Of a DNA stretch of 25,935 bases, positions 3,480 to 3,790 are shown piece by piece. The DNA is from a virus. Its lineage: Duplodnaviria > Heunggongvirae > Uroviricota > Caudoviricetes. Position 1 is the stretch's first letter. Every line of letters begins with the position of its first letter. A model generated the notes under the pieces. The model saw only the letters and a program-made list of their open reading frames with translations. It was not told the DNA's origin and made no database searches. Position numbers and translations under genes: made by a program. The DNA lies in IMG/VR virus record IMGVR_UViG_2636415858_000002, positions 1 through 25,935 of that record; one strand, given 5' to 3'.

Positions 3480-3554
3480 TGGAGCGGGCAGCGGGAATCG
3501 AACCCGCATCATCAGCTTGGAAGGCTGAGGTAATAGCCATTATACGATGCCCGC
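3480..3554 (-). tRNA. tRNA-Gly (anticodon UCC), glyT-like
   Basis: Minus-strand read GCGGGCATCGTATAATGGCTATTACCTCAGCCTTCCAAGCTGATGATGCGGGTTCGATTCCCGCTGCCCGCTCCA folds as a cloverleaf; anticodon from manual folding. Confidence 0.8.
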
Positions 3555-3557
3555 ATA

Positions 3558-3633
3558 TGGTGCCGACTACCGGAATCGAACTGGTGACCTACTGATTACA
3601 AGTCAGTTGCTCTGCCTGCTGAGCTAAGTCGGC
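3558..3633 (-). tRNA. tRNA-Thr (anticodon UGU), thrU-like with D-loop differences
   Basis: GCCGACTTAGCTCAGCAGGCAGAGCAACTGACTTGTAATCAGTAGGTCACCAGTTCGATTCCGGTAGTCGGCACCA; manual cloverleaf, anticodon loop CTTGTAA. Confidence 0.75.
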
Positions 3634-3635
3634 GC

Positions 3636-3712
3636 TGGCCCACCACCGAGGACTCGAACCTCGCACCGTCAACTTAGAAGGTTGATGCTCTATCCGGATG
3701 AGCTAGTGGTGG
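3636..3712 (-). tRNA. tRNA-Arg (anticodon UCU), atypical C1-G72 acceptor end; phage-type
   Basis: CCACCACTAGCTCATCCGGATAGAGCATCAACCTTCTAAGTTGACGGTGCGAGGTTCGAGTCCTCGGTGGTGGGCCA; anticodon loop CTTCTAA, T-loop TTCGAGT; manual fold only. Confidence 0.55.
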
Positions 3713-3716
3713 TTGG

Positions 3717-3790
3717 TGGCCCTTGCTGGACTTGAACCAGCGACCTGGCGATTATGAGTCGCTCGCTCTGACCAACTGAGCTAAAGGGCC
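3717..3790 (-). tRNA. tRNA with CAU anticodon (Ile2/lysidine-type, ileX-like; elongator Met not excluded)
   Basis: GGCCCTTTAGCTCAGTTGGTCAGAGCGAGCGACTCATAATCGCCAGGTCGCTGGTTCAAGTCCAGCAAGGGCCACCA; resembles E. coli ileX as recalled. Confidence 0.65.

Follow-up and report, generated by a model that had tools for sequence, protein, structure and literature searches.

A four-gene lambdoid-type tRNA island on an insertion-sequence-bounded prophage fragment and its probable part in rare-codon supply

We analysed a 25,935 nt stretch of a tailed-phage record (IMGVR_UViG_2636415858_000002, positions 1 to 25,935; hereafter the window), with a focus on an island of tRNA genes at 3480-3790. ARAGORN, run on the whole 25.9 kb window, detected exactly four tRNA genes, all of them on the minus strand. 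Along that strand they are tRNA1, of the tRNA-Ile2 type with the anticodon CAU (3714-3790; Rfam 70.5 bits), tRNA2, a tRNA-Arg(UCU) built on a scaffold of the argN family (3636-3712; 56.4 bits), tRNA3, a thrU-derived tRNA-Thr(UGU) (3558-3633; 69.8 bits), and tRNA4, a tRNA-Gly(UCC) that equals glyT (3480-3554; 64.9 bits). All four lie far above the gathering score of 29 bits of the Rfam family RF00005 and belong to the tRNA family on this measure. The spacers between them are 1, 2 and 3 nt long, and each gene encodes its own 3' CCA. A sequence-only reading had placed four minus-strand tRNAs with the anticodons CAU, UCU, UGU and UCC at these positions; its tight packing stands, with the measured 1, 2 and 3 nt in place of the 1-4 nt it gave. 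Furthermore, public annotation of the identical 391 bp exists already: in genomes of E. coli from RefSeq the Prokaryotic Genome Annotation Pipeline (PGAP) labels the genes tRNA-Ile, tRNA-Arg, tRNA-Thr and tRNA-Gly, with the pseudogene flag absent. Neither a missing call or different anticodon nor a pseudogene verdict on the Arg gene was thus returned by ARAGORN, Rfam or PGAP, and the tRNA observation is confirmed.

The gene with the CAU anticodon could in principle be an elongator tRNA-Met, and ARAGORN labels it as such, because the program reads the CAU anticodon literally. At the level of sequence, however, tRNA1 is identical to the ileZ of Shiga toxin (Stx) phages in 74 of 77 positions (96%) and to K-12 ileX in 69 of 77 (89.6%), against only 52 of 77 (67.5%) for K-12 metT or metU. 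The core of its anticodon stem and its anticodon loop are those of ileX, its acceptor strand carries the GGCCC seen in ileX, and it has the C4-G69 and C5-G68 pairs. Ikeuchi and co-workers are said to have reported in 2005 that TilS tells tRNA-Ile2 from tRNA-Met by precisely these two pairs. Together with the tRNA-Ile label from PGAP, these features point to a tRNA-Ile2, one of the two identities (Ile2/Met) that the sequence-only reading had given for this gene; the identities led us to reject the tRNA-Met reading, which we regard as extremely improbable. Modification of the CAU anticodon with lysidine is presumed.

The second gene shows 64 of 77 identities (83%) to the argN of Stx phages, 54 of 77 to K-12 argU and 46 of 77 to argO. 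Its allele combines C1-G72, A3-U70, A20, C35, U36 and G73. The identity elements of arginyl-tRNA synthetase (ArgRS) are A20, C35, U36 or G36, and A73 or G73; the window allele has all of them and is predicted to be an E. coli-type tRNA-Arg. The Rfam alignment contains no non-canonical pair in this gene, every stem being of the Watson-Crick type, and, judged by sequence, it would be a working tRNA. The third gene differs from K-12 thrU in just two D-loop positions, U16C and U20C (74 of 76 identities, 97.4%), and the fourth is 100% identical to K-12 glyT. Changes in the D loop had been suggested for both; they are present in the Thr gene and absent from the Gly gene.

The island lies on a prophage fragment of about 0.9 kb, the homology to intact relatives spanning only window positions 3000 to about 3919. 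On the downstream side a 292 nt spacer (3188-3479, minus strand) runs from the tRNA-Gly gene to the start of a P21-type class II holin gene for a product of 63 aa (2996-3187, minus strand; Pfam PF04971, E = 1.8e-33), whose 3' end has been replaced at the junction with the insertion sequence (IS) IS600. The latter occupies 1770-2995 on the minus strand, is 99.8% identical to entries described as 'IS3-like element IS600', contains Pfam transposase domains, and forms the downstream boundary of the fragment. On the upstream side the fragment is bounded by IS911 (3919-5985, minus strand; 99.6-99.8% to 'IS3-like element IS911'), into which an IS1 recognized by its Pfam domains is nested (4072-4839); in chromosome L129 the IS911 segments 5980..4840 and 4071..3917 are contiguous, without the IS1 between them. 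The holin and IS911 flanks had both been named from the sequence, and they are borne out. The IS911 end abuts a hairpin resembling the phage terminator tR', 129 nt upstream of tRNA1, and parts the island from the antiterminator gene Q and the late promoter pR'.

A sigma-70-like promoter is predicted at 3800-3829 on the minus strand (TTGCAG-17 nt-TATTAT), with the end of its -10 element 9 nt before tRNA1. Its hexamers are invariant across three types of related island, whereas the sequence of the spacer between them differs; this pattern of fixed hexamers and variable spacers suggests a footprint of function at the putative promoter. In phage Sp5 a primary transcription start for the tRNAs has been mapped between tR' and stx2 (PMC7547250). 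The window promoter, predicted from sequence, lies likewise between the tR'-like hairpin and the tRNA genes, the experimental start being that of Sp5 only. The hairpin itself, read from the sequence at 3879-3900 on the minus strand (CCCGC-TTTAT-GCGGG followed by T7), has the form of an intrinsic terminator, is kept ahead of the island in relatives, and is what remains of the 3' end of the short transcript from the late promoter. With its own promoter kept, and with Q and pR' gone, the island would have retained what constitutive tRNA expression in a lysogen needs and lost the boost of the late phase.

E. coli CFSAN029787 has an identical island, with zero substitutions over the 391 bp, in a lambda-like prophage that is intact. 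There the order is Q, about 200 nt, the tRNA genes, about 290 nt, and the holin-lysozyme-Rz cassette, which fixes the place of the island after Q; of this arrangement the window keeps the holin side and the tR'-like hairpin. The same prophage carries ipaHe beyond its tail-fibre genes, and its tail fibre-ipaH segment is 98% identical to that of the window. The fragment also recurs exactly in all six of the Shigella-type chromosomes examined, with the same truncated holin and with flanks that have been rearranged in different ways. One of these is CP000036.1, which we take to be Shigella boydii Sb227; another alignment, that of CP026731.1 to window positions 23-6187, is 100% identical except for a short gap where two aligned blocks join. 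Beyond these, the identical 391 bp island is present in nine complete E. coli genomes, and at least 80% of the island is covered in 591 of 5,426 complete E. coli genomes, mostly by a type that carries a Lys gene and shows about 94% identity. Isolated phages carry the island as well. In the literature full text, outside which the original 933W papers fall, we found no paper on an Ile2-Arg-Thr-Gly island.

A pattern scan of IMG/VR with the tRNA2 scaffold returned at least 119 contigs, and the alleles and island types below were counted among the matches listed. The argN scaffold occurs in at least 27 alleles with three anticodons, UCG, UCU and UUU. Alleles of the UUU class, with the loop CCUUUAA and thus C33, were seen in about 56 contigs, those of the UCU class in about 40 contigs, 20 of them with the exact window allele, and those of the UCG class in about 27. 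Across 27 alleles the cloverleaf is well maintained: 98.2% of the cells in stem positions are paired, and five pairs show compensatory double changes. The C1-G72 pair, which the sequence-only reading had noted correctly and had singled out as unusual, is kept in 26 of 27 alleles; together with the recurrence of the window allele itself in at least 20 IMG/VR contigs, this marks it as a hallmark of the family rather than an oddity. Among three alleles compared, that of the window is the cleanest. Its 3-70 pair is A-U, where the Stx argN has G.U and others have G-C, and A-U at 51-63 takes the place of the A.C found in the UUU alleles and in the Stx argN. The exact allele is further found in several Shigella-type chromosomes and in the nine complete E. 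coli genomes.

Three gene arrangements prevail among the matches: Ile2-Lys(UUU)-Thr-Gly (about 50 contigs), Ile2-Arg(UCG)-Arg(UCU) (about 24), and the Ile2-Arg(UCU)-Thr-Gly type of the window (25 of 119). The U16C/U20C allele of the Thr gene is linked to the window-type allele of tRNA2. The composition of the island had been described as different from that of the known ones, which is accurate as regards its genes; it is, however, one of three common types.

Several individual alleles and islands in this collection deserve separate mention. The commonest scaffold allele (UUU; L002:5095-5171; at least about 56 IMG/VR contigs, for example L012 and L014) combines C33, U73 and an A51.C63 mismatch. 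A U33 is near-universal in tRNAs. This allele is named tRNA-Lys by PGAP in hundreds of E. coli genomes. The argN of Stx2a_F349 (L003:3095-3171) and that of L053 have a G3.U70 wobble, where other alleles have G3-C70 or A3-U70. Such a G3.U70 pair is the major identity element of alanyl-tRNA synthetase, and the allele may be an evolutionary intermediate or may carry a risk of mischarging. In the single contig L107 the third tRNA is thrU-derived with its anticodon changed from UGU to UUU (G35U, plus A26G) and lies beside an Arg(UCU) tRNA2; here a tRNA with the anticodon UUU has arisen a second time, independently, on a scaffold other than that of Lys. The island of L081 reads Ile2-Arg(UCU)-Gly(UCC)-Thr(UGU), and its Thr gene is of the HK446 type, with a diverged anticodon stem, in place of a thrU copy. 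Judging from such mixtures of host-derived and phage-type tRNAs, the slot after Q appears to be modular. Finally, contig L110 and E. coli RMDEC332 (H40) hold a decaying window-type island with stem-breaking changes in the Thr and Arg genes, and mutations make their glyT copy, whose acceptor end bears a deletion, read as 'Val(UAC)'. Upkeep of the island is thus not universal.

The likeness to the ileZ-argN-argO islands of lambdoid late regions, which had been proposed from the sequence, was confirmed by these comparisons. In Stx phages of the 933W, Sp5 and Stx2a_F349 type the island is likewise placed after Q/pR'-tR' and ahead of the first late genes. It opens with ileZ there and with a gene 96% identical to ileZ here, the second gene is built on the argN scaffold with C1-G72, the two are 1 nt apart, and the hexamers of the proximal promoter are equal. 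The differences lie in the anticodon of tRNA2 (UCU in the window against UCG in argN), in its discriminator base (G73 against U73) besides the two stem pairs given above, in the lack of an argO homolog, in whose stead the thrU- and glyT-derived genes are found, and in what follows: the window island precedes a holin and no stx, while that of the Stx phages lies between Q and stx. The Ile2-'Lys'(UUU)-Thr-Gly island, found in many lambdoid prophages and phages of E. coli, for example in strain S51 and in the phages vB_EcoS-689R5 and PhiR47_1, matches the four-gene layout of the window, spacers included, at about 94% identity. It too has the thrU/glyT-derived pair, lies ahead of a class II holin, and carries the same promoter. 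It differs in its tRNA2, with the CCUUUAA loop, U73 and the A51.C63 mismatch, and in its Thr copy, which is thrU itself, without C16 and C20.

Two further systems share part of this design. The Asn(GUU)-Thr(UGU) pair of SfI, Sf6, ST64T, P21 and HK446 occupies the same lambdoid slot after Q and includes a Thr(UGU) gene, and a bias towards ACA codons has been reported for SfI (PMC3636060); its sequences are unrelated to those of the window, with 64.5% identity and a different anticodon stem in the HK446 Thr, and it has no Ile2, Arg or Gly gene. The host operon thrU-tyrU-glyT-thrT contains the counterparts of tRNA3 and tRNA4 (97.4% and 100% identical), which share only the mature tRNA sequences with it: the window lacks tyrU, the 116 nt spacer and thrT, its flanks and spacers are unrelated to those of the operon, and just 3 nt separate its Thr gene from its Gly gene. 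Taken together, the window island is a common compositional variant of the well-known lambdoid post-Q tRNA island, real but ordinary.

The codons read by these tRNAs were compared between the 54 coding sequences of the CFSAN029787 prophage (11,979 codons) and 48 K-12 genes (14,426 codons), with the 61 sense codons ranked by the ratio of their frequencies. AGA ranks first (4.6-fold), followed by AGG (4.5-fold), CGG (3.2-fold), ACA (3.0-fold), AUA (2.6-fold), GGA (2.2-fold), CGA (2.0-fold) and AAG (1.8-fold). The four primary cognate codons all fall within the top 6 of 61 (nominal P about 3e-5), and the cognate set AGA/AGG, ACA, AUA and GGA holds five of the six top places in the genes of this relative. 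The remaining codons of high rank are decoded by the UCG and UUU alleles of tRNA2. The non-IS genes of the window behave similarly when set against the K-12 sample: per thousand codons, AUA stands at 8.0 against 2.7, AGA at 10.1 against 1.2, ACA at 15.5 against 4.9, and GGA at 13.7 against 6.7. The window also contains a gene for an E3-ligase effector, ipaH, which runs off the end of the window (24124-25935). Most of the cognate codons are enriched in it; its 602 codons include 12 AGA, 6 AGG, 7 AUA and 8 ACA, with AGG at about 0.8 per thousand in the K-12 sample. The sequence-only reading had put forward a supply of AGA and AUA decoding to phage or ipaH genes. The enrichment of both codons agrees with it and the counts fit, and the function is one that we infer from sequence; the sequence-only interpretation as a whole is partly supported.

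We consider it probable that the island is a lambdoid late-region tRNA island, homologous to ileZ-argN-argO and surviving on a scrap of prophage bounded by IS600 and IS911, which supplies tRNAs for rare codons. The top enrichment ranks of the cognate codons and the retention of a promoter of its own make rare-codon supply the best explanation. In this scheme the four genes would be co-transcribed from their upstream sigma-70 promoter, with additional read-through in intact phages from Q-antiterminated pR' transcripts. As the 1-3 nt spacers and the encoded CCA suggest, RNase P would cleave each 5' end of the transcript, and the leftover 1-3 nt at the upstream 3' ends would be trimmed to the CCA. 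Once charged and modified (with lysidine, mnm5U and cmo5U), the products would enlarge the pools of four low-abundance host tRNAs, with Ile2 decoding AUA, Arg(UCU) decoding AGA and AGG, Thr(UGU) decoding ACA, and Gly(UCC) decoding GGA. Horizontally acquired genes that overuse these codons, namely the phage genes and the ipaH effector, would then be better translated, with a possible benefit to the fitness of the host. The persistence of the fragment, unchanged in six Shigella-type chromosomes despite the rearrangement of its flanks, lends support to this interpretation.

Several considerations weigh against rare-codon supply. IS911 has removed Q and pR', so that only the small proximal promoter could drive transcription, and the expression, processing and aminoacylation of the island are themselves predictions. 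The host presumably keeps argU, ileX/Y, thrU and glyT, which would make the island copies redundant. The codons in question are those that are rare in E. coli generally, and foreign DNA of any kind overuses them; most prophages would thus be expected to show such a match, which the nominal P value exaggerates, and the host baseline is small, at 48 K-12 genes. The commonest sister island has a Lys(UUU) gene, yet AAA is not enriched and AAG only 1.8-fold, so that codon supply fails to explain every member of the island family. Furthermore, the exact conservation among the Shigella chromosomes may reflect recent shared ancestry rather than selection.

There are two other accounts of why the island is there. 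It might be an inert remnant, a non-functional leftover kept for being small and recent, with little or no transcription after the loss of Q and pR'. The setting agrees with this: IS600 and IS911/IS1 flank the fragment, the holin is truncated, IS elements are scattered throughout what else remains of the prophage, E. coli has genes of its own for each of the four specificities, and the related islands of L110 and RMDEC332, with the glyT copy that reads 'Val', are visibly decaying. The island itself tells otherwise. None of its four genes is damaged, each having a perfect cloverleaf and a CCA end, its 391 bp show zero substitutions against the intact prophage of enteroinvasive E. coli and six Shigella-type chromosomes, and its dedicated predicted promoter has been retained, which leaves an inert remnant rather unlikely. 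The other account starts from phage defence. Toprim tRNases, namely P2 OLD and the AriB of PARIS, act against lambdoid phages, and the island might serve mainly to replace the host tRNAs that they destroy, with the Thr U16C change and the foreign scaffold of tRNA2 conferring resistance to the nucleases. AriB targets Lys(UUU), Thr(UGU) and Asn(GUU) (PMC12409363), while P2 OLD, a classical anti-lambda system, kills via the thrU-encoded tRNA-Thr(UGU), whose anticodon stem it cuts at paired CNG motifs (PMC12445682). The tRNAs lost to OLD in vivo are Thr(UGU), Gly(UCC), fMet, Val(UAC) and Pro(UGG), the first two being among its strongest targets (bioRxiv 10.64898/2026.07.10.737580), and the thrU/glyT-derived pair of the island corresponds to the first two tRNAs on that list. 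The glyT sequence (K-12 L004:474-548, equal to window 3480-3554) has paired CNG motifs (CAG 28-30 and CUG 40-42) and A37, as do OLD substrates (PMC12445682). A U16C change left AriB cleavage of tRNA-Lys 'significantly impaired' (PMC12409363), and both C16 and C20 occur in the Thr gene of the window. In sister islands a tRNA with the anticodon UUU is built on the argN scaffold, with G39, C16 and C33; other lambdoid phages have Asn(GUU) and Thr(UGU) after Q (PMC3636060; HK446), and the Thr(UGU) of HK446 rescues phages from OLD (bioRxiv 10.64898/2026.07.10.737580).

Against a role in such counter-defence, over-expressed E. coli thrU was unprotective in both studies of OLD (PMC12445682; bioRxiv 10.64898/2026.07.10.737580), and the Thr gene of the window retains the host anticodon arm, with both CNG motifs and the AriB site U36AAUC|A41. 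The Gly gene likewise equals glyT, its host anticodon arm unchanged. A phage tRNA that is resistant, the Thr of HK446, has a diverged anticodon stem and is only 64.5% identical, and neither the Thr nor the Gly copy of the window has this divergence of the anticodon arm. Resistance of the window Thr to P2 OLD was accordingly rejected on sequence. Arg(UCU) and Ile2 fall outside the OLD and AriB target sets named in the quoted tRNA-seq studies; an older aminoacylation study, as relayed by PMC12445682, has arginine among the affected tRNAs, with the isoacceptor unnamed there. Few positions in tRNAs are less constrained than 16 and 20 of the D loop, the Thr allele with C16/C20 is one linked haplotype rather than a recurrent change, and the phage in the window is dead, hence nothing is left to protect. 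A true tRNA-Val(UAC) variant of the island in RMDEC332 and L110, which had been entertained as support from a further OLD target, was rejected: the 'Val' gene is a mutated and truncated glyT copy in a decaying cluster. We judged that the evidence against counter-defence outweighs the evidence for it, and we hold it to be improbable as the main role of the island. A broader proposal is equally doubtful, namely that Toprim tRNases have done as much as codon usage to shape the slot after Q, as a modular cassette of 'spare' tRNAs in which the thrU/glyT-derived pair would mirror the leading OLD targets, the U16C/U20C Thr would be partly resistant to AriB and OLD and the C1-G72 scaffold would offer a nuclease-proof chassis for the anticodons UCG, UCU and UUU. 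The overlap in targets probably arises in that scarce tRNAs needed by phage genes are both a bottleneck of translation and a natural target of defence. The idea that the tRNA genes serve as integration sites of satellites was also set aside, being unsupported by PMC10111431.

As regards the surroundings of the island, the spacer at 3188-3479 is predicted by RNA folding to form three long hairpins (-89.1 kcal/mol; z = -4.07 against shuffled sequences). At least its first part is conserved in the island of E. coli S51, and it matched no Rfam family. A search of 3100-4000 with Rfam at a relaxed threshold returned the tRNAs only, apart from sub-threshold terminator-like matches (Trp leader, isrK). 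Elsewhere the window consists of prophage DNA interrupted by many IS elements, with an integrase fragment, a cI-like repressor, a Rha/Ash antirepressor, tail genes, IS66, tail fibres and ipaH. At 22148-25935 a tail-fibre gene (phage_tail_N and DUF4376) is followed by ipaH in convergent orientation. At the 5' end of the Rha/Ash antirepressor gene we noted a C4 antisense RNA (78.6 bits) and an isrK Hfq-binding RNA (68.5 bits) at 9458-9646 on the minus strand; the antirepressor region (8858-9697), located between two IS600-like elements, is an immunity/anti-repressor module of the P1/P7 or Gifsy type.

As it stands, the finding changes little. It confirms that a Shigella-type genome keeps, in the remains of a prophage that carries ipaH, a complete, promoter-equipped set of tRNA genes for AUA, AGA, ACA and GGA, codons that are rare in E. 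coli. The occurrence of one phage tRNA scaffold with three anticodons, beside a host-derived pair that matches two of the tRNAs most depleted by OLD, bears on the debate between codon supply and counter-defence as explanations of phage tRNAs. Virulence genes of the ipaH kind use most of these codons heavily, and the island is thus a plausible minor contributor to the translation of effectors.

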